DNA of 64,000 bases from an uncultured Acidobacteriota bacterium (GTDB taxonomy: Bacteria; Acidobacteriota; Vicinamibacteria; Vicinamibacterales; JAFNAJ01): the NCBI GenBank assembly GCA_963697285.1, contig CAVONI010000001.1, positions 320,812 through 384,811 of the forward strand, written 5' to 3'. The position numbers and the translations under genes were made by a program. The notes under the pieces are model-generated. The model ran no database searches, had not been told where the DNA came from, and was given only the letters and a program-made list of their open reading frames with translations. Every line of letters begins with the position of its first letter. Position 1 is the stretch's first letter. Shown here piece by piece: positions 1,315 through 40,741 of the stretch.

Positions 1315-4143
1315 TCAGCGCCCGCCGATCACCCGCGTCAGGTCCTCGAGTTCCACTGGTTTCACGAAGTGATGCTCGAAGCCCGCCGCGGTTGACTGGT
1401 TCTTGTGTTCGGTCTGGCCGTACCCGGTGAGCGCGATGAGACGCGTGGAACGACACGTCTCCAGGGTTCGCAACTGCCGCGCGACCTCGAACCCGTCAAG
1501 GCCCGGCAGGCCGAGATCGAGTACGGCCACGTGGGGCTTGAATTCCCGGGCGACGGAAAGCGCCTCGGGGCCATTGAATGCCACGCGAACGTCGTGACCG
1601 AGCAGCGTCAGGCCCTTCGCGAGGACCTCCGCTGCGTCGACGTTGTCGTCGACGACGAGCACCCGCTGGCCGCTGTCGTCGTGCGCGTCTCCGGAGACGT
1701 CCGCCATGGGCCGCTCCACGTCCGCATGCTCCCTTCCTGGCGCAAGCGGCAGCCAGACGTCGAAGCGGCTGCCCTTGCCCCGCCCGTCGCTCGCAGCCGA
1801 GACGCTGCCGCCGTGCAATTCGGCGATGCGCTTCACGAGGGCGAGACCGATCCCGAGACCTCCCTCGGCGCGATCCAGCGTTTGCCCGCCCTGCGTGAAC
1901 AGATCGAAGATCCCCTCCATGACCTCGGGATCGATCCCGATGCCCGAATCGCGCACCGACACGCGAGCCTGGCCGTGGTCGGCCCGGGCTTCGATGGCGA
2001 CCGCACCCCTGTTGGGCGTGTACTTCGAGGCGTTGTTGAGCAGGTTACCCAGCGCCTGGACCAATCGGGTCAGGTCTGCGCTGACCCAGATTGGCGTGTC
2101 GGGCACCAGCACATCGAGGCGCTGACCGCGTTGCTCGAAGAGCGGCCGGTTGATCTCTGCGGCCTCCTCGACAGCCAGCCTGGCGTCGATCGATGCAAGG
2201 CGCAGCCTGATGCGCCCCGCCGTGATGCGCGAGACTTCGAGCAGATCGTCCAGCAGGCGGCTCATGTGGCGGGTCTGGCGTGAAATCACGTCAGCGAGCC
2301 GGATCAAGGTGGGATCGCCGCGCGTCACCAGTCGCAGCGTGTTCACCGAACTGACCACTGGCGCCAACGGATTCCTGAGTTCGTGCGCCAGCATCGCGAG
2401 GAACTCGTCCTTGCGCCGGTCGGCCTTCCGCAGTTCTTCTTGTGCGCGCTTCACGCTGTCGATGTCGCTGGCCACGCCGATCCATTTCGCCGGGTGGCCG
2501 CCGTCGGCCAGCGGCACCGCGTGCACCTTGAACCAGCGGGGCGTGCCGTCGCCGGCGCGGAAGCGCAGTTCGGCGCCGAATGCGGTGCCGGCGGCCACGG
2601 CCGCCTCCCACAGCGCCCGCGTCTGCGCACGGTCTCGCTGGTCAACCTTGTCGATCCAGTTGCCGAGGTCACGGCGATCCCCGACGTCGCCGCTGAATTC
2701 GTAGAACCAATGGTTCACGTAGTCGCACTCACCGCCTGGCGCACACGTGAAGAGCATGGCGGGCACCGCGGCCGTCAGCAGGGCGAGCGTGGCCTGGCTC
2801 TCGCGCAGGGCCGCGATCATCGTTTCACGTGCCGTGACGTCGACGGCCAGCCCGTGCAGGTACACGAGGCCGCCCTGGTCGTCGAACACCCCGCGCGCGG
2901 TCTCCTCGAGGGCGACGACACCCCCGTCGGGGCGCACCACGCGGTAGACCGTCGTGTAGTTCGCCTGGGAGGGGGTCAGCTTCTGCACCAATGAGGTGAG
3001 GCGACCACGATCGTCAGGGTGAACCACGTCGACGAACGCGGCCCCCCCGTGGTCGCCGCCGAGGCCGAGGATGGCCGTGCTCTCTTCCGAGTAGGTCGTG
3101 GCTCCGGTGCGGAGGTCGCGCTGGAACGAGAACATGCGCGCGGCGCGCATCGCCAGGTGCATCTGCTCGCGGCCACGGGCGAGTTCCGCCATGATCCGCT
3201 TCCGCTCGGTGACGTCCTCCGACACCTTGTTGATGGCCACCACGGATCCGGCGGCATCGGTGATCGGATAGTAGCTGGCGTTCCAGGTGCGAGCCTCGGT
3301 TGGCGCCGCGGGCGTGTTCCCCCCGATCTCGACGTCGAGCACGGTCTCGCCCTGCAGCACGCGGCGCAGGACAGGTTCGACCGAGTCGGCGAGCCCGGGC
3401 ACCACCTCGCGAATCGTGCGGCCGATGTGGTCCGACACGGCCACGCCGTGCATGGCCGCCAGGCGATCGTTCACGCGCACGAAGCGCAGGTCGCGATCGA
3501 GAACGCCGAGGCCGACCGGTGCACTTCGGTACACCGATTCGAGTTCCGCGAACCCGCGCTCGGCCATCGCCTCGCTGTCGCGCAGGCGCTCCCGGAGCTC
3601 GCGCTGCTCGGTGACGTCGATGATCGAGCCTGTCGCGCGCCTGGTCGTCCCGGCGCCGTCCGAACGGCTCGCGCGACCCCGCAGCCATCGGGCGGCACCG
3701 TCGGGGCGCACGACACGGAACTCGACATCGAGCGTCGTCCCGTGATCGCGGAGGTCGTCCCAGGCGGCTGCCACGCGTGCGCGATCGGCGGGGTGGGTCG
3801 CGGCCAGGAGCGCACTCACGGATGACACGCCCGCACGCGGCGCATGGCCGAGCATCTCCCACGTCGTGGCGTCGTGCTCCAGGCGACCGGCATCGAGATC
3901 GATCCGCCACGTCCCCACCCCGGTACCGTCAATTGACACAGGCATTCCGTTCTTGTGGAGTTGTCCGCGCCGTCGGAGGGACTCGCCTTCGGGATCGTCT
4001 GAAGTGACCGGCCGGTGCACTGGGCAGCTCGCTTCAGATGTGCTTATGCAGCCGCAATGCCAGCCGCTCGGCTGTCGGGACCCATGCAAGGCGCGGCCTG
4101 CACATTCGAGCGTCCAGCACGTCCGTGAGCGATCGAATTCCAC
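1315..4143 (-). CDS. hybrid sensor histidine kinase/response regulator with multiple PAS domains
   Basis: 942-aa ORF with several PAS-like segments, H-box FLAMLAHELRNPL and ATPase boxes LLNNASKYT, DSGIGI and GGLGIGLALV. The C-terminal receiver reads VLVVDDNVDAAE...LDLGLPGLDG. An alternative start is MPVSIDG at 3945. Confidence 0.9.
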   Translation of the reverse strand: MEFDRSRTCWTLECAGRALHGSRQPSGWHCGCISTSEASCPVHRPVTSDDPEGESLRRRGQLHKNGMPVSIDGTGVGTWRIDLDAGRLEHDATTWEMLGHAPRAGVSSVSALLAATHPADRARVAAAWDDLRDHGTTLDVEFRVVRPDGAARWLRGRASRSDGAGTTRRATGSIIDVTEQRELRERLRDSEAMAERGFAELESVYRSAPVGLGVLDRDLRFVRVNDRLAAMHGVAVSDHIGRTIREVVPGLADSVEPVLRRVLQGETVLDVEIGGNTPAAPTEARTWNASYYPITDAAGSVVAINKVSEDVTERKRIMAELARGREQMHLAMRAARMFSFQRDLRTGATTYSEESTAILGLGGDHGGAAFVDVVHPDDRGRLTSLVQKLTPSQANYTTVYRVVRPDGGVVALEETARGVFDDQGGLVYLHGLAVDVTARETMIAALRESQATLALLTAAVPAMLFTCAPGGECDYVNHWFYEFSGDVGDRRDLGNWIDKVDQRDRAQTRALWEAAVAAGTAFGAELRFRAGDGTPRWFKVHAVPLADGGHPAKWIGVASDIDSVKRAQEELRKADRRKDEFLAMLAHELRNPLAPVVSSVNTLRLVTRGDPTLIRLADVISRQTRHMSRLLDDLLEVSRITAGRIRLRLASIDARLAVEEAAEINRPLFEQRGQRLDVLVPDTPIWVSADLTRLVQALGNLLNNASKYTPNRGAVAIEARADHGQARVSVRDSGIGIDPEVMEGIFDLFTQGGQTLDRAEGGLGIGLALVKRIAELHGGSVSAASDGRGKGSRFDVWLPLAPGREHADVERPMADVSGDAHDDSGQRVLVVDDNVDAAEVLAKGLTLLGHDVRVAFNGPEALSVAREFKPHVAVLDLGLPGLDGFEVARQLRTLETCRSTRLIALTGYGQTEHKNQSTAAGFEHHFVKPVELEDLTRVIGGR

Positions 4144-30085: not shown

Positions 30086-30778
30086 CTAGCGCGGCGATGT
30101 CTTGCAGGTGATCGAAATCCCCGACCAGCTCGCACGGTTGATCGTCGTCCGCCCGTCGGTGAGGCGGTCGAGCGCGGCGAGGAAATCCCTGGCTCCGCCG
30201 CCGCGCATCGCGACATTGTGCGCCGTGAAGCAGCCGCCGGGGGCGACCTTGGGCCACACGGCCGCAAGGTAGTTCGGGTACCACTCCTTGTCGGCATCCG
30301 AGAACACGAAGTCCCATGGGCCCTGCAGGGTGCGCGTCAGCTCGTGGGCATCGCCCAGGCGGGCGTCGATGTAGCGCTCGAGGCCCGCGGCCTTGAAGTG
30401 CGCCACCGCCTCGCGGTGACGCTGCGGATCGATCTCGAGCGTGGTCAGGCGCCCGCCCGTCTTGCTCAGGGCCCACGCGATCCAGATGCCGGAGTGCCCC
30501 GTGGACGTGCCGATCTCGAGCGCCCGCGTGAACCGGTGCTCGAGGATGAGGTCGTGCAACGTCTGACCATCGACGGCATCGACGTTCATGTCACGCCACG
30601 TTCCCCGGCGCGCATCGAGATAGGCCCGCACGCGCGCGTCGAGATCCGGCGTCGCCGTGGCCTGGTCGCCGGCAGCGCCGGCGCTGCCCCGGGCAGCGTG
30701 ATGCGGCGGGCCTGCCGTGATCAGCACCGCGATTGCGAGCGATAGGCCCAGGACGAATGAGTTCGCATGGAACCGCAT
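30086..30778 (-). CDS. class I SAM-dependent O-methyltransferase (caffeoyl-CoA OMT-like) with signal peptide
   Basis: ATG at 30778. The sequence is MRFHANSFVLGLSLAIAVLITA, then ALEIGTSTGHSGIWIAWAL...LTTLEID...DFVFSDADKEWY. Confidence 0.8.
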   Translation of the reverse strand: MRFHANSFVLGLSLAIAVLITAGPPHHAARGSAGAAGDQATATPDLDARVRAYLDARRGTWRDMNVDAVDGQTLHDLILEHRFTRALEIGTSTGHSGIWIAWALSKTGGRLTTLEIDPQRHREAVAHFKAAGLERYIDARLGDAHELTRTLQGPWDFVFSDADKEWYPNYLAAVWPKVAPGGCFTAHNVAMRGGGARDFLAALDRLTDGRTTINRASWSGISITCKTSPR

Positions 30779-31076
30779 GGACGCTCCTCCGAACGCGATC
30801 GTGTCGCGTCGCGCTAGTCTAGCGCGCCACCAGGCGCATGGCGTCGCGGCGGCCGGCCCGACGCTCGTCATCCGGCGTGCCGGGCGCAGCCGGAGCGGTC
30901 GTCATGCCCAGGGGGCAACGGCGCGGGCCGACTTTCGTCCACATACCCATTCTGGTAGGTTCACCCGTGCGGACCGCCGGCCGGGCGCTCACCCACGCGG
31001 GTGGCATGACTCTTCACGCCCTGGCCGCCGAGGGCGCGGCGTGTGCCGCAGGCGGTCTGAGAGGCCTGCCGTGACC

Positions 31077-33925
<2,849 letters not shown>

Positions 33926-34102: not shown

Positions 34103-34256
34103 CCTCACGAGAGCGCCGCGTCGCTGCGGGCTCGACGGCGCCATCGAGGCGACGGAACTCAGGCTGCAGAGCTGAGAAAGGTATAAACTCGTGAGGCTGA
34201 ACGGGTGTCCACCCGTTCTGCGCGACGACCGAGTTCCCGTAACGGAGGAACAACCA

Positions 34257-34769
34257 ATGTCTGACACGATGACCCTTCCACGCCGCCGGGCGGCCCTCGG
34301 CATGGCCCTCGGGCTGATCGCTGCGGCGACGCCGCTTCGCGCCCAGGGGGCGAAGCCGAGCCCCGAGGTGGAAGCGTTGAAGGCGCTGCTCGACGCGCAC
34401 GACAAGGCGTTCACGGCGCACGATATGAAGGGCGTGCTCGCGCTGTTTGCGCCCAATGCGACCATCCTGGGCACGGGCCCGGGCGAGATTTGGGGTGGCC
34501 ACGAGGAGATTGCGGTCGCCTACAGCCACTTCTTCGAGGACTTCGATCCCGGCAAGCAGACGGTCGAAGCGCTGTGGCGCGACGGTCACGTGCTCGGCGA
34601 CATGGCCTGGCTGATGACGTCCACCAAGGTCACCATGACGAAGGGGGCGACGGTCGTCGAGGTCGGGCTCAACCTTTCGGTCACGTTCGAGAAGATCGCG
34701 GGCAAGTGGCTCGTCCGCACCATGCACTTCTCGAACCTCACCGGCGGCGCGCCGCCAGAGAAGAAGTAG
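34257..34769 (+). CDS. SnoaL-like / NTF2-fold (DUF4440-like) protein with twin-arginine signal
   Basis: ATG 34257 follows GGAGGA. The Tat-like signal is MSDTMTLPRRRAALGMALGLIAAATPLRAQG. The NTF2-like body is ALLDAHDKAFTAHDMKGVLALFAPNA...KWLVRTMHFS. The gene ends 7 nt before the precursor gene. Confidence 0.7.
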   Translation: MSDTMTLPRRRAALGMALGLIAAATPLRAQGAKPSPEVEALKALLDAHDKAFTAHDMKGVLALFAPNATILGTGPGEIWGGHEEIAVAYSHFFEDFDPGKQTVEALWRDGHVLGDMAWLMTSTKVTMTKGATVVEVGLNLSVTFEKIAGKWLVRTMHFSNLTGGAPPEKK

Positions 34770-34776
34770 GACCGTC

Positions 34777-35151
34777 ATGGACGACACGCGCGACGACTTC
34801 CTTCCCGAGCCGGTCGACGAGGCCCGGCGCGAGTTCCTGCAAGGCGTCAAGTCCTGGTCGGCGGCCGTCGCCACGCTCGCGCTCGGCGGCTCGTTCGTGG
34901 CCGTGAGCACGCGGCCGGCTTCCGCGTGGGTCAACAGCAGCGCCACGTGGGTCAACACGCGAGGCGGCTGGATCAACAAGGCCGGGGCGTGGGTCAACAA
35001 GGCCGGCGCGTGGGTCAACGGCGCCGGCGGTTGGGTGAACAGGGCCGGCGGCGGCGGTTCCGCCGGCTGGGTGAACAAGGCCGGTGGCGGCAGCACTGCC
35101 GGCTGGGTGAACAAGCGTGGCGGCGGCGGCGCTGCCTGGGTGAACCGATAG
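34777..35151 (+). CDS. RiPP precursor candidate: Tat-leader peptide with nine W-[V/I]-N motifs in a Gly-rich repeat (GRRM/triceptide-like)
   Basis: 124 aa. The leader MDDTRDDFLPEPVDEARREFLQGVKSWSAAVATLALGGSFVAVSTRPASA has an RREFL twin-arginine motif and an A-S-A cleavage site. The core is WVNSSATWVNTRGGWINKAGAWVNKAGAWVNGAGGWVNRAGGGGSAGWVNKAGGGSTAGWVNKRGGGGAAWVNR. A radical SAM/SPASM gene lies 0.8 kb downstream. Confidence 0.75.
   Translation: MDDTRDDFLPEPVDEARREFLQGVKSWSAAVATLALGGSFVAVSTRPASAWVNSSATWVNTRGGWINKAGAWVNKAGAWVNGAGGWVNRAGGGGSAGWVNKAGGGSTAGWVNKRGGGGAAWVNR
34927..35148 (+). repeat. coding repeat: nine TGGGT(C/G)AAC / TGGATCAAC (W-V/I-N) units with 21-39 nt spacing
   Basis: Direct reading of the core region. 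Spacers lengthen and become Gly-rich towards the 3' end. Confidence 0.9.
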
Positions 35152-35186
35152 CTCCGGACGACGAGCCGTTCTCAACAGTCGTCAGC

Positions 35187-35947
35187 GTGCCAGTGGTGTG
35201 CGCGGCAGACCATGGACAGGGCGCGCTCATCCTGCGCGTCACGAATCCCGGGGATGTGCCTCGCGTTGCGGATGTCGATCCGCGGCGCGTCGTCTGGGTC
35301 GAGACCCCAGTTGGGCTTGCCGGCAGTGACTGGCCGCCCGGCATCGGGCTCGACCTGCGCGTGGTGGAGCCCGGGACAGAGGCCGCGTTGCTCTACGCGG
35401 TCGCGCACGTCGCGAACGAGCGCCCGCTTCGCGTGACGATTCCGGTCGAGCGCGGAGTGGCGAAGGCTGCCCGCGTGGCGATGGCCCTCCACCTGCCTGT
35501 GCGCCTGGCGGCGCAGCAACCAACGCCTGCGGCAGTCGCCGAACTCGCGTCCGTCCTCGAGGCGTACCTGCACGACTCACAGGCGACCGAGCCGGTCGAG
35601 TTCTTCCACTCGGCCCTCGCCCACGACGTCCACGGCGTGCCCACGACGCTGTGGATGGCCGTGGAGCGTGACCCGGCGTTCCACCAGAGGATGGCAGAGG
35701 ACGGGACTGCCGACCCGCGGGAACCCCCGCCAGACGAGGGCTTCGTTGCCGCGCACCTCTCCGGCGTTGACCGCGGCCGGGGCGGCGTGCGCGACGTGCC
35801 GTTTTCGCGACTTCTGTAGCGGGTTACTTCAAGTGGCCGGATCCCGCGTACGATTGCGGGCCGGTCATCGAACTGCTCGAGCAACTCCGGGCCGCCTCGG
35901 GTCAGCTCGCGCGCGACCTCGACGAAGCAGGGCCGGTGCAGACGTGA
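35187..35947 (+). CDS. rSAM-partner protein with C-terminal CxxCx5C Cys cluster (frame broken about twice)
   Basis: Frame 0 runs from GTG 35187/35193/35196 (VPVVCAADHGQGALILRVTNPG...EGFVAAHLSGVD). Frame 1 then reads AAGAACATCRFRDFCSG. Frame 2 then reads YFKWPDPAYDCGPVIELLEQLRAASGQLARDLDEAGPVQT. The frame-2 stop overlaps the rSAM GTG (GTGA at 35944-35947). Frame 2 has no start codon of its own. Confidence 0.5.
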
Positions 35948-37078
35948 CCGGGCCGCCGCTCAGCCTCATCCTGCTGCCGACGCTCGACTGCAACGTCGCC
36001 TGCGACTACTGCTTCGAGGAGAAGGCGCGCATCTCGCTGTCGCACGATGCAGCTGTCGCAGCTCACCGGCAGGATCCTCGATTACATGGCCGAGCGCGGG
36101 ACGACGCGGGCGGAGCTGTACTGGCAGGGCGGCGAGGCGCTGCTGATGGGCCACGCGTGGTTCGAGCGCGCCTTCGAGACGATGGGGCAGGCCGCGGCGC
36201 AGCGCGGCCTCGTGTTCCATCACTCGCTGCAGACCAACCTGATCGGCTACGGGCCGCACTGGAACGCGATCCTGCGCACGATGTTCGACGGCTCGGTCGG
36301 CACGTCGATGGACGTTCCGAATCGTCACCGCCGGCTGAAGAACGGGAGCACCGAACGCTACACCGAGGTGTGGCTCCGATCGGTGCGACAGGCCCGCGAG
36401 GCCGGGCTGAAGGTCGGCGTGATCGCGGTGCTCCACGCGGGCAGCCTCGACATCGGGGCGCGCGAGTTCCTGTCGTTCTTCACGCAGCAGGCCGGCATCG
36501 ACGACCTCCAGGTGAACCTGCCCTTCCCGGGCGGGCCGGGGCAGGGGGGCGACACGCTGGCGCCCGAGGCGCTGACCCGTTTCCTGATCGAACTCCTGGA
36601 CGCCTGGATGGAGACCGGCGCCGACCGTGGCGTCCGCCTCGGTCCGTTCGACGCGCTCCTCGACGCGTTCTCGGGCCGCCAGGCGCAACTGCCCTGCATC
36701 TGGCAGCCGAACTGTGCGAACGAGTTCGCGGCGATCGATGCGCGCGGCTCGGTGGCGCTCTGCGACTGCTGGGTCACCAGCTATCCCGAGCACCGCTTCG
36801 GCAATGTCTTCGGCACATCGAGCCTCTCCGAAATGCTGGGCGCGAGCCCCGCGCGCCAGGCATTCCTCGATCGGCCGGCGCACCTCGTGGATCACGACGA
36901 CTGCGGATCCTGCGCGCACCTGTCGCTGTGTCATGGCGGTTGTCCGGTTCGCACCTTCGCGGCCACCGGCACGATCCTCGCGAAGGACCCTTATTGCGAG
37001 GTCTACAAGGCGCTCTTCACGGAGTGCCGCGAGCGAGCGGCGGCGACCGTGCGGCGGCGCCATGCCGCCCTGTCATGA
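35944..37078 (+). CDS. radical SAM/SPASM domain peptide-modifying enzyme, interrupted by one frameshift near 36046
   Basis: The CX3CX2C motif LDCNVACDYCFEE (35989-36012) is in frame 1. The remainder (MQLSQLTGRILDYMAERG...YWQGGEALL...) is in frame 2 (ORF 36047..37078). It carries the SPASM motif CGSCAHLSLCHGGC plus upstream and downstream Cys residues. Confidence 0.85.
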
Positions 37079-37117: not shown

Positions 37118-37861
37118 TTGCGCCAGACAGCAGGGAGGTTCGCCATCGGCCAGCGCTTCGAGACCACCCACTGGAGCGTCGTGCGGGCAGCGCAGACCGC
37201 TGACACGCAGCGGCGTCGCGACGCGCTCGGGGTGTTGTGCGATGCCTACTGGCCGCCCATCTACGCCTTCCTCAGGCGGCGGGGCCTGTCACCGGAGGAC
37301 GCGGCCGACCTCACGCAGGCCTTCTTCCTCCACCTCGTCGAATCGCAGCGGCTCGCGAACGTCGATCCGGCACTCGGCCGATTCCGCTCGTTCCTGCTCG
37401 CCTCGGTGAAGAACTTCGTCGCCAACGAGTGGGATCGCGAGCGCGCGCAGAAGCGCGGTGGACACATGGCCCGCGTGGCCTTCGACCCCGACGCGCTCGA
37501 ACGCCGCTACAAGGCACTGCACCGTGACGATCTCGACCCCGAGCGCCTGTTCGACCGGCATTGGGCGCACATCGTCCTGGAGCGCGCCGTCGATCGCCTC
37601 CGCGCCCAGCAGGAACGCGCCGGCAAGGAACGCGAGTTCGCGCTGCTGCGCACGTTCCTGACGTCGGACGCGGGTGGGGAGCGTGCCTACCGCGAGGTGG
37701 CCGCGGAACTCGGCGCGACCGAACCGGCGGTGCGGACCGCCGTGCACCGCTTGCGGTTGAAGTACGGGACGTGCCTGCGCGAGGAGATCGCCGAGACGGT
37801 CAGCGATGCCGTCGCTGCCGACGCGGAACTCCGTCACGTCCTGATCGTGGCCGCCGCGTGA
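37118..37861 (+). CDS. ECF-type RNA polymerase sigma factor
   Basis: The N-terminus is FETTHWSVVRAAQ. Region 2 reads LCDAYWPPIYAFLRRRGLSPEDAADLTQAFF. Region 4 reads YREVAAELGATEPAVRTAVHRLRLKY. The start codon is uncertain (TTG 37118; a GGAGG lies at 37134-37138). The gene is convergent with the Ser/Thr kinase gene. Confidence 0.8.
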   Translation: MRQTAGRFAIGQRFETTHWSVVRAAQTADTQRRRDALGVLCDAYWPPIYAFLRRRGLSPEDAADLTQAFFLHLVESQRLANVDPALGRFRSFLLASVKNFVANEWDRERAQKRGGHMARVAFDPDALERRYKALHRDDLDPERLFDRHWAHIVLERAVDRLRAQQERAGKEREFALLRTFLTSDAGGERAYREVAAELGATEPAVRTAVHRLRLKYGTCLREEIAETVSDAVAADAELRHVLIVAAA

Positions 37862-37954: not shown

Positions 37955-40741
37955 TCAGGCGGCGATGGCCCGCGTGAAGCGCTCGAGGAACTCGTGCGCC
38001 GACTGCGGCCGGCTGGCCACGTCGTCGGCGAGGGCGGCAGCGACAAAGACCGCGAGCGCCGCACTGAGCCGCCGTGGCGTGTGCACCACCGGATAGGTCC
38101 CTGTGGTGAGCTCCGCGTCGCGCTGGTGGTTGGCCAGACCGCGCGGTCGCGAGCCCGTCAGCATCTCGGCCGTCATCACCCCGAGCGCCCAGAGGTCCCA
38201 CAACGGCGATGTCTCCTCGCCGGCCAGTTGCTCGGGCGACATGTACGCCAGCGAGCCGACGATCACATCGGCGTGTGTGCGCGGCGTGGTCACCGACGAT
38301 GACCCCGCAAGGACCTTGGCGATGCCGAAGTCGAGCAGTTTCGTCACCTCGTGATCGGTCGAACGCGCGAGGAAGACATTCTCGGGCTTCAGGTCGCGGT
38401 GCACGAGGCGTCGGCTGTGGGCCTCCTCCAGGACGTGGCAGATGTCACTGACCACGCGCGAGGCACGCGGCACGTCGAGCGCGCCGTCGCGGGAAATGGC
38501 GTCGCGCAACGTGCGGCCTTCAAGGCATTCCATCAGCAGGAACGCGCGCCCGCTGCGCGTGACGCCGACGTCGTAGACCGTCACGACGTTGGGATGCGTG
38601 AAGCTCGCCGCCACCTGCGCCTCGCGCCTGAATCGCTCGGCGGCGTCGCTGCTGCCCACGAGGTGATCCCCGATCACCTTCACCGCCACCTGGCGGACGA
38701 GGGCCTCGTCGCGTGCGCGGTAGACGCGCCCCATGCCGCCGGCGCCGATGCGGGCTTCGAACCGATACCGCCCCGCGAGTACCGGCGGCAGATCGTTGAC
38801 CATCAGCAGCACGCCGTCGTGCGGGCACCGCGCGAGGGTGGTATCGAAACAGGCGCCGCAGTCAGGACACTCGGCCAGCGACGCGTCACCTTCGTCCGGC
38901 ATCGACGTCGGCGTCGCCGACACCGCGCGATCGAGCAGGAGGCCAAGGCTCGCGGCGATCGCCTCGAGCAGCGCGATGTCGTCGCGCGTGTAGGGCTCCT
39001 CTGACCGCTTCGGCCCGAGCGCCAGCAGCACCTCGCGCCCGGCCTCGACCGTCACGGGGACGACCAGTTCCACCTCGGCGTCGAACACGGCGTGTGACTC
39101 GTCGGCGGTCAGGTGCTGCGTAATCCACGTGTCGTGATCGGGCGATAGCTGGAGGGCCGATCCCGTGGCACGCGCAAGTCCGACCAGCGTCCAGCCCGGC
39201 GCCGGGGCGAACTGCCGGGGAAACGATGGCGTCGCCGCGAGGATGGCAAAGGGACCGGTGTCACCACGGTGCGCGAGCGCACCGACGAACGCCGGTTGCA
39301 GGGCGGCAGCCACTTCATCGACCACGTGCGCGGCGGCGCCGGCAGGATCAGTGGCCGTGCGCAGCCGGGCGGCCACGCTGTGCAGGACCTGCTCGGCCCG
39401 GTGACGTTCGCGGAAGAAGCGGCGATCGAGCTCGTCGAGCCATCGGCGCCGGTTGACGAGCGTCACCCCGAGCGCTCCCGCGAGCAATGCGTAGAGCCAT
39501 CCCCGTGCCTGCAGCAGTGGGCCGATCGGCTGGTCGTGGCGCAGCAGGATGTCGGCCATCAGCGCGACCGCCAGCACGGGCACGAGGCCGATCAGGAGCC
39601 GTCGCGCCAGCGCGTAGCGCACGCCCTGGCGCAGGATCGACCCGACATCGAACACGCGTTGCCGCAGCACCACGTACGCCACAGAAAGCGGGAAGGGCAG
39701 CAACATCAACACGCCCGCCAGCGTCAGCGGCGAGTGGAACAGGCCGCTCGTCACCTGCGATGAGCTGCCGAGCCAGAATTCCGTTTCGACCAGGGCGGCC
39801 GCCAACGCGCCAATGGTTGCGCCTGCCAGGAGCAGGCGCAGGCGGCGCACCTCGGCAGGCTCGTGCAGTCGGCGGTACTGGGCGACCAGCATCACCAATC
39901 CGCCGGCCGAATAGGCAGTCGTGAGCGCGACCATGTGCGGCATCCAGTCGCGGCCCGTGAGGGTGCGCGCCTCGAGCTGCACGGCGATGTACCCGAACGC
40001 GACGTGCCAGGCCAGGATGATCGCCCCGGGGACGCACAGGAGGGGCACGGCCCACGGGCGGTCGCGCAGGAGCGGCTGCGGAAACCGGGCACTGAACAGG
40101 AAGAAGAGCATCGGGCCTGCCATGCTGCACAGGAAGGGCAGCCACATGGCCCACTCGAGCGGTGCGGGAAGGCTCCGCCAGTAGCGGGCGAAGCCGAAGG
40201 GCAGGACGATGGTGAAGACCGCGAGGCTGCCGAGCAACAGCGCCGCGAGTCCCGCAAGCCAGTTGCCGGGGCGCCTGACCGCGACCATCACGCCGAGGGC
40301 GAGACACAGCGCCTGCACGAGCCGGGCGAACCAGAGGGCGAGGCTCTTGCTCTCGAGCGACTCCCAGCGACGTTGCACCGCCGACTCGATGCGCGTCGAG
40401 AACACGGCGCCGTCGCGCGTCACGTCGATTGCGATGGGACCGCCCGTGAGGTTCGCGTCCACCGCCATCCAGTCGAGGCGCGTCATCACGCGACGCTCCG
40501 CGTACGACCGCACGCGGTCGCCCGGCTTGATGCCCGCCTGCGCGGCGGGAGAGCCGGCCGTCACGCCGGCAACCAGCACGCCCGCCTCGTCGAAGGCGAT
40601 GTGCAGTCCGGTGGGGGTGCGCTGGAAGAGGTCGGCGTAGAGGAGGACGCCGAAGTAGAGCAGGAACGCGCCGATGACGGCGTAGACCCATGCAGCTGGA
40701 CGTGGCCGCCTGGTGCCGCGGGGGCGTGGTCGCTCAGGCAT
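37955..40741 (-). CDS. membrane Ser/Thr protein kinase with PDZ, polytopic TM, GAF-like and zinc-ribbon-like regions
   Basis: 928 aa. It has a PDZ-like AGSPAAQAGIKPGDRV, about 8 hydrophobic segments, a GAF-like region and CPDCGACFDTTLARCPHDG. The C-terminal kinase has GAGGMGRVYRA, VAVKVI, HRDLKPENVF, DFGIAK and YMSPEQ. Confidence 0.9.
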   Translation of the reverse strand: MPERPRPRGTRRPRPAAWVYAVIGAFLLYFGVLLYADLFQRTPTGLHIAFDEAGVLVAGVTAGSPAAQAGIKPGDRVRSYAERRVMTRLDWMAVDANLTGGPIAIDVTRDGAVFSTRIESAVQRRWESLESKSLALWFARLVQALCLALGVMVAVRRPGNWLAGLAALLLGSLAVFTIVLPFGFARYWRSLPAPLEWAMWLPFLCSMAGPMLFFLFSARFPQPLLRDRPWAVPLLCVPGAIILAWHVAFGYIAVQLEARTLTGRDWMPHMVALTTAYSAGGLVMLVAQYRRLHEPAEVRRLRLLLAGATIGALAAALVETEFWLGSSSQVTSGLFHSPLTLAGVLMLLPFPLSVAYVVLRQRVFDVGSILRQGVRYALARRLLIGLVPVLAVALMADILLRHDQPIGPLLQARGWLYALLAGALGVTLVNRRRWLDELDRRFFRERHRAEQVLHSVAARLRTATDPAGAAAHVVDEVAAALQPAFVGALAHRGDTGPFAILAATPSFPRQFAPAPGWTLVGLARATGSALQLSPDHDTWITQHLTADESHAVFDAEVELVVPVTVEAGREVLLALGPKRSEEPYTRDDIALLEAIAASLGLLLDRAVSATPTSMPDEGDASLAECPDCGACFDTTLARCPHDGVLLMVNDLPPVLAGRYRFEARIGAGGMGRVYRARDEALVRQVAVKVIGDHLVGSSDAAERFRREAQVAASFTHPNVVTVYDVGVTRSGRAFLLMECLEGRTLRDAISRDGALDVPRASRVVSDICHVLEEAHSRRLVHRDLKPENVFLARSTDHEVTKLLDFGIAKVLAGSSSVTTPRTHADVIVGSLAYMSPEQLAGEETSPLWDLWALGVMTAEMLTGSRPRGLANHQRDAELTTGTYPVVHTPRRLSAALAVFVAAALADDVASRPQSAHEFLERFTRAIAA

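Follow-up and report, generated by a model that had tools for sequence, protein, structure and literature searches.

What is made from a short open reading frame whose predicted product joins an export-signal-like leader to an array of W-x-N motifs, and how would such a product leave the cell? The frame lies in a 64,000-nucleotide stretch of DNA from an uncultured Acidobacteriota bacterium (hereafter the window), at 34777..35151 on the + strand, and its translation is the 124-residue sequence, plus stop codon, given in the initial annotation. Judged by its sequence, the frame is a genuine gene. An AGGA Shine-Dalgarno element lies 8 nt 5' of its start, GC at third codon positions is 0.84-0.92, and there are 80 homologues at E ≤ 1e-3, within a family of 278 representatives (50%-identity clusters) that ranges over Verrucomicrobiota, Acidobacteriota, Armatimonadota, several Proteobacteria and other phyla. 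No Pfam family matched the precursor, a scan of the whole window against Rfam found nothing, and a scan for promoters and terminators found nothing exceeding background. The source DNA is 69% GC and shares 91% identity with a Microflora-Danica-type contig (L077). In the public record of the source contig the precursor carries no gene call, and such loci are therefore easily overlooked by annotation-based mining.

The core of the predicted peptide (residues 51-124; 34927..35148, + strand) comprises nine W-[V/I]-N motifs set between Gly-rich spacers and ends in WVNR. All nine Trp and all nine Asn residues of these 74 amino acids fall inside W-x-N motifs, and when the core was shuffled with its composition preserved, four or more such motifs arose in just 225 of 100,000 shuffles. 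The motif is conserved in the 80 homologues; its W and N are invariant, and the spacers differ even from the window to its close relative L077. The spacers read SSAT, TRGG, KAGA, KAGA, GAGG, RAGGGGSAG, KAGGGSTAG and KRGGGGAA, as listed in the initial annotation, and six of the nine motifs have K or R next after Asn, in line with its remark that this residue is mostly basic. The annotation had also taken the lengths (4, 4, 4, 4, 4, 9, 9 and 8) for a graded series built into the design of the peptide. That idea did not survive. In the DNA, the core holds two tandem-repeat blocks found by Tandem Repeats Finder, the first (34946-35053, +; TGGGTCAAC type) repeating 5.1 times with a period of 21 and the second (35019-35136, +; TGGGTGAAC type) 3.3 times with a period of 36, or, in protein terms, five 7-residue units and then three units of 11-12 residues. 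Growth of the spacers along the peptide is seen in the closest relatives only (Spearman rho 0.8-0.9); the family-wide median rho is 0.21, with 40% of values negative, and spacer lengths in the family have two modes, 4 (n=174) and 8 (n=120). The two repeat blocks and the family-wide correlation rule out graded spacers as a design principle, and the pattern is specific to a clade rather than a trait of the family.

The precursor gene is the second of four, in the order exported SnoaL/DUF4440 protein, precursor, partner and anSME-like radical SAM/SPASM enzyme, an operon that is kept across at least six phyla and was seen in contigs L001, L002 and L077 as well as in JGI contigs. The first gene (34257..34769, +) encodes an NTF2-like exported protein (Pfam SnoaL_3, 2.2e-12; DUF4440, 1.6e-9); its frame opens at 34191, and the likely start is the ATG at 34257 (MSDTMTLPRRRAALGMALGLIAAATPLRAQG...), as fixed by a 170-aa call in L077. 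Acidobacteriota members of this protein family begin with a lipoprotein signal, those of Verrucomicrobiota with a signal of MNRRxxI type. The genes are tightly coupled: 7 nt separate the SnoaL stop codon from the precursor start, the partner gene (35136..35947, +) overlaps the precursor end by 16 nt, and the GTG start of the maturase gene (35944..37078, +; ~378 aa, delimited by tblastn) overlaps the partner's TGA as GTGA. The partner, ~260-265 aa in a three-frame reading guided by tblastn with intact homologues, starts with CTG in the window as against GTG, TTG or ATG in homologues.

We counted linkage in 73 species-level genomes that carry the partner, using loci with enough flanking sequence. 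Two genes downstream of the precursor, the radical SAM/SPASM gene follows the partner immediately in 65 of 68 loci, which bears out the original suggestion that the frame encodes a RiPP-type precursor. The precursor lies upstream of the partner in 55 of 62 loci, with three further copies degraded or frameshifted, and in 49 of 60 a SnoaL homologue immediately precedes the precursor; precursor, partner and radical SAM gene are linked in ~60 species. Such linkage, across at least six phyla and with start and stop codons overlapping, speaks against the precursor being simply an unmodified secreted Gly/Trp-rich repeat protein whose neighbouring radical SAM enzyme acts elsewhere.

In the window, both the partner and the maturase genes are frameshifted. 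Extra bases at ~35765 and ~35818 distribute the partner over three frames, and an extra T at 36048 shifts the frame of the maturase, placing its CX3CX2C motif and its SPASM domain in different frames, with the remainder of the gene appearing as the ORF 36047..37078. A reading of these genes as pseudogenes was ruled out, since a housekeeping-type P-type ATPase in the window is itself split over at least five frames, L077 lacks the window's three extra bases but has other indels of its own, and Illumina-based JGI contigs carry intact genes encoding 269 aa and 400-414 aa. We attribute the frameshifts to probable assembly errors.

The enzyme belongs to the radical SAM/SPASM superfamily by its CX3CX2C motif (LDCNVACDYC; 35989-36012, +) and its C-terminal SPASM domain (TIGR04085, 46.5 against a cutoff of 27). 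It matches the models for DynA, DarE/DarW, GrrM/OscB, AmcB, YhhB, XyeB and FxsB, all far below their cutoffs, and anSME equally well. The best single NCBIfam match of the window enzyme is the anaerobic sulfatase maturase (113, cutoff 349), and the nearest solved structure is anSMEcpe (PDB 4K36/4K37; E 1.5e-15 over the full length), whose SPASM cysteines C317, C320, C326, C330 and C348 all align with those of a homologue's enzyme. Taken at face value, a best match to a sulfatase maturase would suit an enzyme that acts elsewhere and leaves the repeat protein as it is. However, anSME makes formylglycine from a Cys or Ser in a sulfatase, and the conserved cassette encodes no sulfatase, nor a protease or transporter; the scores of the enzymes on the anSME family (113-143) miss its cutoff; and every Trp and Asn of the core sits in W-x-N, the substrate motif of OscB. 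We regard an unmodified product as highly improbable, and it is very likely that the product is a radical-SAM-modified RiPP.

The closest known system is that of the GrrA/OscA1-GrrM/OscB triceptides (TIGR04260/TIGR04261). Like GrrA/OscA1, the precursor is ~120 aa long, with a Gly-rich W-x-N array in its C-terminal half, and like GrrM/OscB, the adjacent anSME-like radical SAM/SPASM enzyme is without an N-terminal RRE domain; the aromatic-X-X motif that defines triceptides occurs in the core as the nine W-[V/I]-N. TIGR04260 is the sole family model to match the core repeats, the repeat part of the precursor alone aligning, to model positions 78-117. The window precursor scores 23.4 bits on this model, under the cutoff of 31; a homologue, P0061, passes with 35.1, and 39 of 81 homologues match at E<0.1. 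Ten KGWS-type variants tried as classical GrrA all failed to reach the TIGR04260 cutoff. For the enzyme, the GrrM/OscB model TIGR04261 (cutoff 310) gave 54.2 with the window fragment and 93.4 and 62.4 with intact homologues. The cassette differs from Grr/Osc, as that system is defined to our knowledge, in two further genes that are conserved, one for the partner and one for the exported SnoaL-like protein.

Among named families, DynA scores highest with the enzyme of an intact homologue, at 158.8 bits with the cutoff of 450 far off, and it too connects a Trp ring carbon to the beta-carbon of Asn. Specifically, OscB joins Trp-C7 to Asn/Asp-Cβ in W-x-N, and DynA joins Trp-C6 to Asn-Cβ (PMC11002830). 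The precursors of dynobactin and darobactin, unlike those of the present family, contain one short core each instead of a repeat array, and the products are antibiotics of 7-10 residues that are released by proteolysis and use dedicated transporters rather than a signal peptide. The crosslink chemistry should be predictable by analogy with OscB and DynA; as the precursor and the enzyme fall below every curated family cutoff, this is an extrapolation from distant relatives.

The leader (residues 1-50; 34777..34926, +) shows the whole succession of elements first described for it: an acidic n-region (residues 1-16; 34777-34824, +) with seven D/E against one K/R, the twin-arginine motif RREFLQG, which opens with R17-R18 (34825-34845, +), a hydrophobic stretch, and PASA followed at once by W-V-N. 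An invariant K-S-W-S (34849-34860, +) follows the twin-arginine motif; the Gly/Ala-rich stretch at residues 27-44 is uncharged, the h-region extends to ~34908 (+), and a 20-residue uncharged stretch is followed by the signal-peptidase-type site P47-A-S-A50 (34915-34926, +), which directly precedes W51-V-N. In a leader profile anchored on RR, conservation reached 100% at R0/R1, 96% at F+3, 100% at L+4, 98% at [KR]+9 and 100% at both W+10 and S+11, and an unbiased alignment (A2) returned R17, R18, L21, W27 and S28 as invariant columns. Homologues retain both RR and the W-x-N periodicity, the two features by which the earlier proposal was to be judged. RR is kept in 81 of 81 first-round homologues, among which KK or KR was never seen; in ~8 of ~140 family representatives one Arg is swapped for K, H, G, C or Q.

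These features can be read as a signal for Tat or as something else carried on a Sec signal. The TatP expression RR.[FGAVML][LITMVF], taken from PMC1182353, is matched by 134 of 138 family sequences, in the window by RREFL; by itself, the expression also picks up 4-7% of Sec proteins as false positives (PMC1182353). On the NCBIfam Tat model TIGR01409, the window precursor scores 15.2, just under the cutoff of 16.7; the cutoff is passed by P0061 (18.0), P0152 (19.3), P0186 (22.9) and P0192 (18.2), and 19 of 81 homologues match at E<0.1. The Tat-like signal originally proposed is supported by the RR pair, the TatP expression and the Gly-rich h-region, but not by the score of the window precursor on the Tat model. 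That score and the false-positive rate would suit an alternative in which the same RiPP is made by the same enzyme and leaves by Sec, with RR-x-F-L...[K/R]-W-S serving mainly for recognition by the partner and the radical SAM enzyme rather than as a Tat determinant. The alternative also accommodates the invariance of W+10, S+11 and I+15 in the leader, none of which Tat needs; small three-residue crosslinks in an otherwise flexible peptide could thread SecYEG; and bufferin precursors, which are modified in the cytoplasm, do leave through Sec signal peptides (PMC11626156).

Several other properties of the leader fit poorly with Sec. At the basic position +9, K (66%) and R (32%) exchange freely, while R0R1 shows no such exchange. 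Compared with the Sec/lipoprotein signals of adjacent genes in the same genomes, the h-region is richer in Gly, poor in Leu and significantly less hydrophobic (2.32 versus 2.76, p=0.009); in a heuristic check, the longest uncharged stretch had a family median of 18 residues. The signal is also long, Met and the first Trp being a median of 56 aa apart in the family, and Tat signals, at a mean of 37 aa, are longer than Sec signals (PMC1182353). We infer that the leader matches a Tat-type signal, Tat and Sec being inseparable by sequence alone; on balance we incline towards Tat rather than Sec, and export by Sec with the motif given over to recognition seems to us rather improbable.

Export is probably only one of two uses of the leader, since [K/R]-W-S at +9 to +11 is invariant though Tat targeting requires neither this motif nor, within and beyond it, W+10, S+11 and I+15. 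The n-region of the family has a median net charge of -4, which is atypical of signal peptides. Together, [K/R]-W-S and the acidic N-region suggest that the maturation proteins recognise the leader as well.

Some Tat substrates, such as Rieske proteins, retain uncleaved signal anchors, and with this precedent the leader might stay in place as an N-terminal membrane anchor, with the array exposed on the periplasmic side of the inner membrane, or might be a cytoplasmic RiPP leader served by an unlinked protease and transporter. For a signal that is to be discarded, the leader shows uncommonly strong conservation, and a cassette without protease or transporter is what an anchor would have as well. 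Yet across phyla the first motif is immediately preceded by conserved small residues at -3 (Ala in 70% of sequences) and -1 (Gly or Ala in 86%), the first Trp follows RR at a constant 32-37 residues throughout the family, and the co-conserved SnoaL-like neighbour is itself exported. Nor does the lack of a dedicated protease or ABC exporter favour retention, as it is expected where general machinery serves, as in bufferins. Verrucomicrobiota often have the first Trp at +2 rather than +1 of the predicted cut (A-G-[I/V]-W). Characterised triceptides are cleaved just ahead of the first cyclophane motif (PMC12912966). We consider an uncleaved leader unlikely, and export via a cleaved signal peptide probable.

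The use of an export signal as leader had been called unusual for RiPPs, a fair description that nonetheless has a precedent: bufferins are modified in the cytoplasm by an enzyme and a partner protein, exported through Sec signal peptides, and accumulate in the periplasm after the signal-peptidase cut (PMC11626156). In both cases a general-secretion signal replaces the classical leader and the cassette is without its own protease or exporter. Bufferins differ in that an MNIO and a DUF2063 protein rather than a radical SAM enzyme are involved, Cys is converted to thiooxazole, the signal is of Sec type, and the core is a folded, Cys-containing mini-protein as opposed to the Gly-rich repeat here. 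No MNIO (DUF692) or DUF2063 gene was found in the cassette, and Cys is absent from the core; the two systems resemble each other in export logic only.

What the partner might contribute is suggested by its sequence and predicted fold. Its 37 homologues, of 252-286 aa, share an invariant motif, C-x2-C-x5-C-x-G-Y-F-K-W-P-D-x2-Y-x-C (35788-35857, +; alignment A1), and neither the window fragment nor an intact homologue matched a family in Pfam or NCBIfam. An AlphaFold2 model (pLDDT 91.5) has a beta/alpha barrel-like fold with the Cys4 motif. No meaningful match came from comparing a profile of the partner with all PDB sequences (best E 0.49), and Foldseek of the model against the PDB returned weak TIM-barrel-like matches only (E ≥ 0.018), of which anSMEcpe has the best TM-score (TMq 0.52), a suggestive rather than conclusive value. 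Profile-profile comparison of the partner with the radical SAM enzyme gave no global alignment; locally, a C-terminal half-SPASM segment alone aligns (E 1.2e-3, probability 19%). As a working analogy we note the Tat signal-binding chaperones (REMPs such as TorD and DmsD), which bind the twin-arginine signal in the cytoplasm and hold the substrate until it is mature (PMC3316669, PMC3712460); the partner has no sequence or fold similarity to these proteins (TorD is all-helical). A speculative and, in our estimation, doubtful extension is that the Tat signal is itself the RiPP leader and that the partner is a radical-SAM-derived pseudo-enzyme that has kept only the four Cys equivalent to those of the second SPASM auxiliary Fe-S cluster. 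It might bind the leader via [K/R]-W-S, present the array to the radical SAM enzyme and, like a proofreading chaperone, withhold the peptide from Tat until every motif is crosslinked, the product being a cyclophane-braced periplasmic 'mini-protein' received by a dedicated NTF2-like protein.

Leaving that extension aside, our main reading is that the frame encodes the precursor of a ribosomal, enzyme-crosslinked peptide of triceptide type, and we put the probability of the whole chain of steps at roughly 0.6. In the cytoplasm, the radical SAM/SPASM enzyme and the partner would, in every motif, link the Trp indole to the beta-carbon of Asn at position i+2, a step suggested by the chemistry of OscB and DynA and by the strict gene linkage, which would yield nine three-residue cyclophanes with a loss of 18 Da. 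Because its conservation exceeds what export needs, the 50-residue leader would have two roles, RR-x-F-L and the h-region directing twin-arginine export, and [K/R]-W-S with the acidic N-region providing a handle for the partner and the enzyme. The modified peptide would then be exported, most likely by Tat, which tolerates unstructured hydrophilic cargo up to ~100-120 aa (PMC6708511). Signal peptidase I, following the -3/-1 rule, would cut after A-S-A50 and free a 74-residue, basic, Gly-rich array that begins with the first crosslinked Trp. In the periplasm, the SnoaL-like protein may bind or further process the product, a weaker suggestion that draws on its co-conservation and its own export signals.

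As a rule, each RiPP pathway has a leader, a protease and an exporter of its own. Bufferins, which rely on a Sec signal peptide, were presented in 2024 as rare departures from this rule, and the present family would carry their export logic to radical-SAM cyclophane peptides, and probably to Tat. In the open-access full text we found no Tat signal tied to RiPP, radical-SAM or cyclophane precursors, and an earlier mention may exist in the primary triceptide papers (Nat Chem 2020, JACS 2022) or in Haft & Basu 2011. The family appears to be a widespread, uncharacterised branch of a known peptide class, offering a compact three-gene route to peptides with up to 10-14 crosslinked W-x-N units and bringing with it two protein families of no assigned function, the partner and the periplasmic SnoaL-like protein. 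The Tat pathway exports its substrates only once they have matured, and the system would thus be a simple, testable case of coupling between maturation and export. If the partner is indeed a pseudo-enzyme that acts on a Tat signal serving as RiPP leader, the pathway would be the first among RiPPs to depend on Tat and would couple maturation to export in a new way.

The open reading frame at window positions 34777..35151 (+) was confirmed, and its 124-aa translation is exactly that of the initial annotation. The leader runs from a 16-residue acidic N-region through RREFLQG, K-S-W-S, which is conserved, and a Gly/Ala-rich stretch without charged residues to P-A-S-A, and the first Trp is, as had been proposed, the very next residue. 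The 74-residue core is made up of nine W-[V/I]-N motifs and, between them, Gly-rich spacers that are 4, 4, 4, 4, 4, 9, 9 and 8 residues long. These motifs hold 9/9 of its Trp and 9/9 of its Asn residues, and only 225 of 100,000 composition-preserving shuffles of the core yielded four or more of them. Third-position GC in this frame is 0.84-0.92, and an AGGA lies 8 nt 5' of the ATG. A search of ~5.8 billion proteins returned 80 homologues, every one labelled hypothetical or unnamed and every one built on the same plan, and a precursor profile matched 278 of 1.84 billion cluster representatives at E<=1e-3 (128 at E<=1e-10). An unbiased alignment of 81 sequences is invariant at R17, R18, L21, W27 and S28 and at the repeat Trp and Asn; the twin arginines and the W-x-N repeats, which the initial annotation had singled out for checking in homologues, are thus both kept. 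As judged by sequence conservation, the precursor is a real gene. Its exact sequence was not found in a 15-billion-protein collection in which neighbours from the same 527-kb contig (the sigma factor and a truncated partner protein) are present, so it has evidently gone uncalled in the public record. Two long proteins that also matched the profile, P0219 (649 aa) and P0255 (696 aa), carry G-Y-V-N-E-S or L-V-N-K-Q repeat arrays and are probably unrelated repeat proteins with composition-driven matches.

In the window and in every informative homologous locus, the genes are closely packed into a cassette with the precursor in second place, between a SnoaL_3/DUF4440 protein gene and that of a partner protein of 250-290 aa with no Pfam or NCBIfam family, which is followed by a radical SAM/SPASM enzyme of ~370-420 aa. 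The partner start overlaps the precursor end by 16 nt, and the enzyme start overlaps the partner stop in a GTGA. Using the partner as a specific marker and scanning one genome per species, we found relatives in 73 genomes, mostly Verrucomicrobiota and Acidobacteriota (Pyrinomonadaceae, Blastocatellia), the remaining taxa being Armatimonadota, Competibacteraceae, Accumulibacter, Syntrophobacteraceae, Desulfobacteraceae, Hydrogenedentes and UASB14. Where a locus had sufficient flanking sequence, the radical SAM enzyme lies directly downstream of the partner in 65/68, a recognisable precursor directly upstream in 55/62 (plus three degraded or frameshifted copies), and a SnoaL-like gene upstream in 49/60. 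The loci L004 (Armatimonadetes), L058 and L071 have partner and enzyme with no W-x-N precursor directly upstream, the partner of L071 being directly abutted by the SnoaL gene; their precursor may be encoded at another site or belong to another type. We also note a DUF2490 gene near the cassette, on opposite sides, in the acidobacterial-type loci L001 (11217-11936) and L002 (6028-6768), a possible envelope link; none was seen in the window. Directly downstream of the window cassette is an ECF-type sigma factor (37118..37861 (+)), adjoined by a Ser/Thr kinase of 928 aa that has PDZ and GAF domains (37955..40741 (-)), an arrangement kept in the homologous locus L077 and not in more distant loci.

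The coding sequence of the window partner falls in three frames, and the CX3CX2C motif of the enzyme lies in another frame than the rest of that protein. A P-type Ca-ATPase at 30717..33925 (+) is broken up among five or more ORFs that differ in frame and that carry Cation_ATPase_N/E1-E2, Cation_ATPase, Hydrolase (twice) and Cation_ATPase_C, which points to single-base indel errors throughout the window. Compared with L077, which is 91% identical, the window carries three extra single bases, at 35765, 35818 and 36048, that break the partner and radical SAM genes; L077 has different indels of its own, corresponding to window positions 35732 and 35932, and one of these falsely joins the partner C-terminus to the radical SAM enzyme (called as 439 aa). 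None of the indel sites in either is a long homopolymer, and short-read JGI contigs have both genes intact, at 269 aa and 400-414 aa. By these sequence comparisons the frameshifts in partner and enzyme are assembly errors, and on the basis of the split Ca-ATPase, the comparison with L077 and the intact JGI genes, we take the cassette to be functional in the organism. The L077 precursor has the same nine motifs and spacer lengths, with substitutions concentrated in the spacers. The partner start at 35136 is CTG where homologues have GTG, TTG or ATG; translation may begin non-canonically here, or the codon may be one more sequence error. Further along in the same frame there are GTG codons at 35187, 35193 and 35196.

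The enzyme, a radical SAM/SPASM protein of anSME-like character, lacks a peptide-binding domain at its N-terminus. Among solved structures anSMEcpe is the nearest (E 1.5e-15), and all auxiliary-cluster cysteines align between the two. The top named families are DynA (158.8 bits), anSME, DarW/DarE, GrrM/OscB (93.4), AmcB, XyeB, YhhB and FxsB, the enzyme coming near the curated cutoff of none of them; most of these relatives produce aromatic-to-Cbeta crosslinks. In W-x-N motifs, OscB joins Trp-C7 to Asn/Asp-Cbeta; the link formed by the dynobactin enzyme is between Trp-C6 and an Asn-Cbeta (PMC11002830). The only family model matching the precursor is GrrA/OscA1 (TIGR04260), at 23.4 for the window against a cutoff of 31, which the homologue P0061 passes with 35.1. 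Given this match and the chemistry of the enzyme's distant relatives, the modification would most likely be one Trp-Asn cyclophane per motif.

The partner ends in an invariant motif, C-x2-C-x5-C-x-G-[Y/F]-F-K-W-P-D-x2-Y-x-C (29 homologues aligned). Its AlphaFold2 model is confident (pLDDT 91.5, pTM 0.88) and shows six strands alternating with helices and a long helix at the end; Foldseek gave only weak TIM-barrel-type matches, the top TM-score (0.52) being to anSMEcpe. In a profile-profile comparison the C-terminal 65 residues align to the terminal portion of the SPASM domain in the enzyme (E 1.2e-3, probability 19%). The four cysteines fall at positions matching anSMEcpe C317, C320, C326 and C348, which we take to be ligands of auxiliary cluster II, and an equivalent of C330, presumably of cluster I, is missing. 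Our hypothesis is that the partner derives from a radical SAM protein that lost the SAM cluster and kept one Fe-S site, and that it probably acts as a peptide-handling or electron-relay subunit.

The spacers had been described as growing along the peptide, an apparent gradient that resolves into two tandem DNA repeat blocks (period 21 with 5.1 copies and period 36 with 3.3 copies) with different Val codons. Family-wide, spacer lengths are bimodal, with peaks at 4 and 8 and no conserved order along the peptide, and the peptides carry between 3 and at least 10 motifs, with up to 14 in some representatives. Repeat units vary by lineage, being WINRWGPRRGG in Verrucomicrobiota and WANRGG in Accumulibacter and Competibacteraceae. 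The former unit (L010, L012, L015, L016, L020-L022, L026-L029 and L057) has two Trp, one Pro and many Arg, and because A-G-[I/V] precedes the first Trp in these loci, cleavage at the predicted site would leave that Trp preceded by one additional residue. W-A-N-R-G-G-type units, with up to 13 motifs, occur in L046, L063, L065, L069 and L014 (Accumulibacter/Competibacteraceae/Contendobacter), all without a SnoaL-like gene upstream; the core of L014 is aberrant and Trp/Gly/Pro/Tyr-rich, and no radical SAM gene was detected downstream of it. L032 (Bacterium UASB14 scaffold DF820459.1, ~2199-3990) has four tandem precursor genes with a common leader and divergent cores. The central position of W-x-N is occupied in them by V, I, G, S, A, T, H or R, and one of the cores finishes with a tail rich in Ser and Arg.

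Among 138 unique family leaders anchored on RR, 57 of them locus-derived and picked by a pattern containing RR, R0 and R1 are present in 100%, F at +3 in 96% and L at +4 in 100%; the unbiased figure for RR is 81/81 homologues. The default TatP expression, RR.[FGAVML][LITMVF] (PMC1182353, with a mean Tat signal length of 37 aa), matches 134/138 of the anchored leaders and 129/146 cluster representatives, an unbiased set in which ~8 full-length members have one Arg of the pair replaced. In the anchored set, the longest uncharged stretch after RR has a median of 18 residues, the first Trp lies 32-37 residues from RR, position -3 is Ala in 70% and position -1 is Gly or Ala in 86%. An internal control is provided by position +9, where 98% of sequences have a basic residue, with free exchange between K (66%) and R (32%), an exchange not seen at R0R1. 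In nine acidobacterial loci whose SnoaL-like neighbour has a lipoprotein (Sec-type) signal, the precursor h-region is less hydrophobic than that signal (best 10-mer Kyte-Doolittle 2.32 vs 2.76; Mann-Whitney p=0.009), Gly-rich and Leu-poor, the direction expected for Tat signals (PMC1182353). Since Tat tolerates unstructured hydrophilic cargo up to ~100-120 residues (PMC6708511), the 74-aa Gly-rich core is compatible with this route. The Tat-type leader of the initial annotation is supported by motif-level and comparative features, but the window precursor scores 15.2 bits with the curated Tat model TIGR01409, under the cutoff of 16.7, which several homologues pass. Overall, the putative export signal appears to be of the twin-arginine type, with the Sec route as the alternative. 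The invariant [K/R]-W-S at +9 to +11 and the acidic N-region (median net charge -4) are unexplained by Tat targeting needs, and we read them as the part of the leader that maturation proteins would recognise.

In predicted chemistry and overall precursor shape the system resembles the triceptides, whose characterised members are cut immediately ahead of their first cyclophane motif (PMC12912966), matching the position of the A-x-A site here. The nearest are Grr/Osc; however, the cassette has two extra conserved genes, and by curated cutoffs precursor and enzyme are not members of GrrA/OscA1 and GrrM/OscB. The likeness to bufferins is in export logic, whereas their enzyme class differs and their signal is Sec rather than putatively twin-arginine. 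Export by signal peptide had been called unusual for RiPPs; the bufferin authors do describe RiPPs with Sec signal peptides as rare, although bufferins themselves are a precedent (PMC11626156). Among open-access papers, searched in full text, none drew a link between Tat signals and precursors of the RiPP, radical-SAM or cyclophane kind.

The SnoaL-like protein always has an export signal of its own, of the lipoprotein type (L-x-x-C) in Acidobacteriota, of the MNRR[E/N]xI type in Verrucomicrobiota, and PRRRAALGMALGLIAAATPLRAQG in the window. We infer the roles of this protein and of the partner from sequence, predicted fold and gene linkage, and the co-conservation of an extracytoplasmic SnoaL-like protein supports a predicted extracytoplasmic destination of the peptide.
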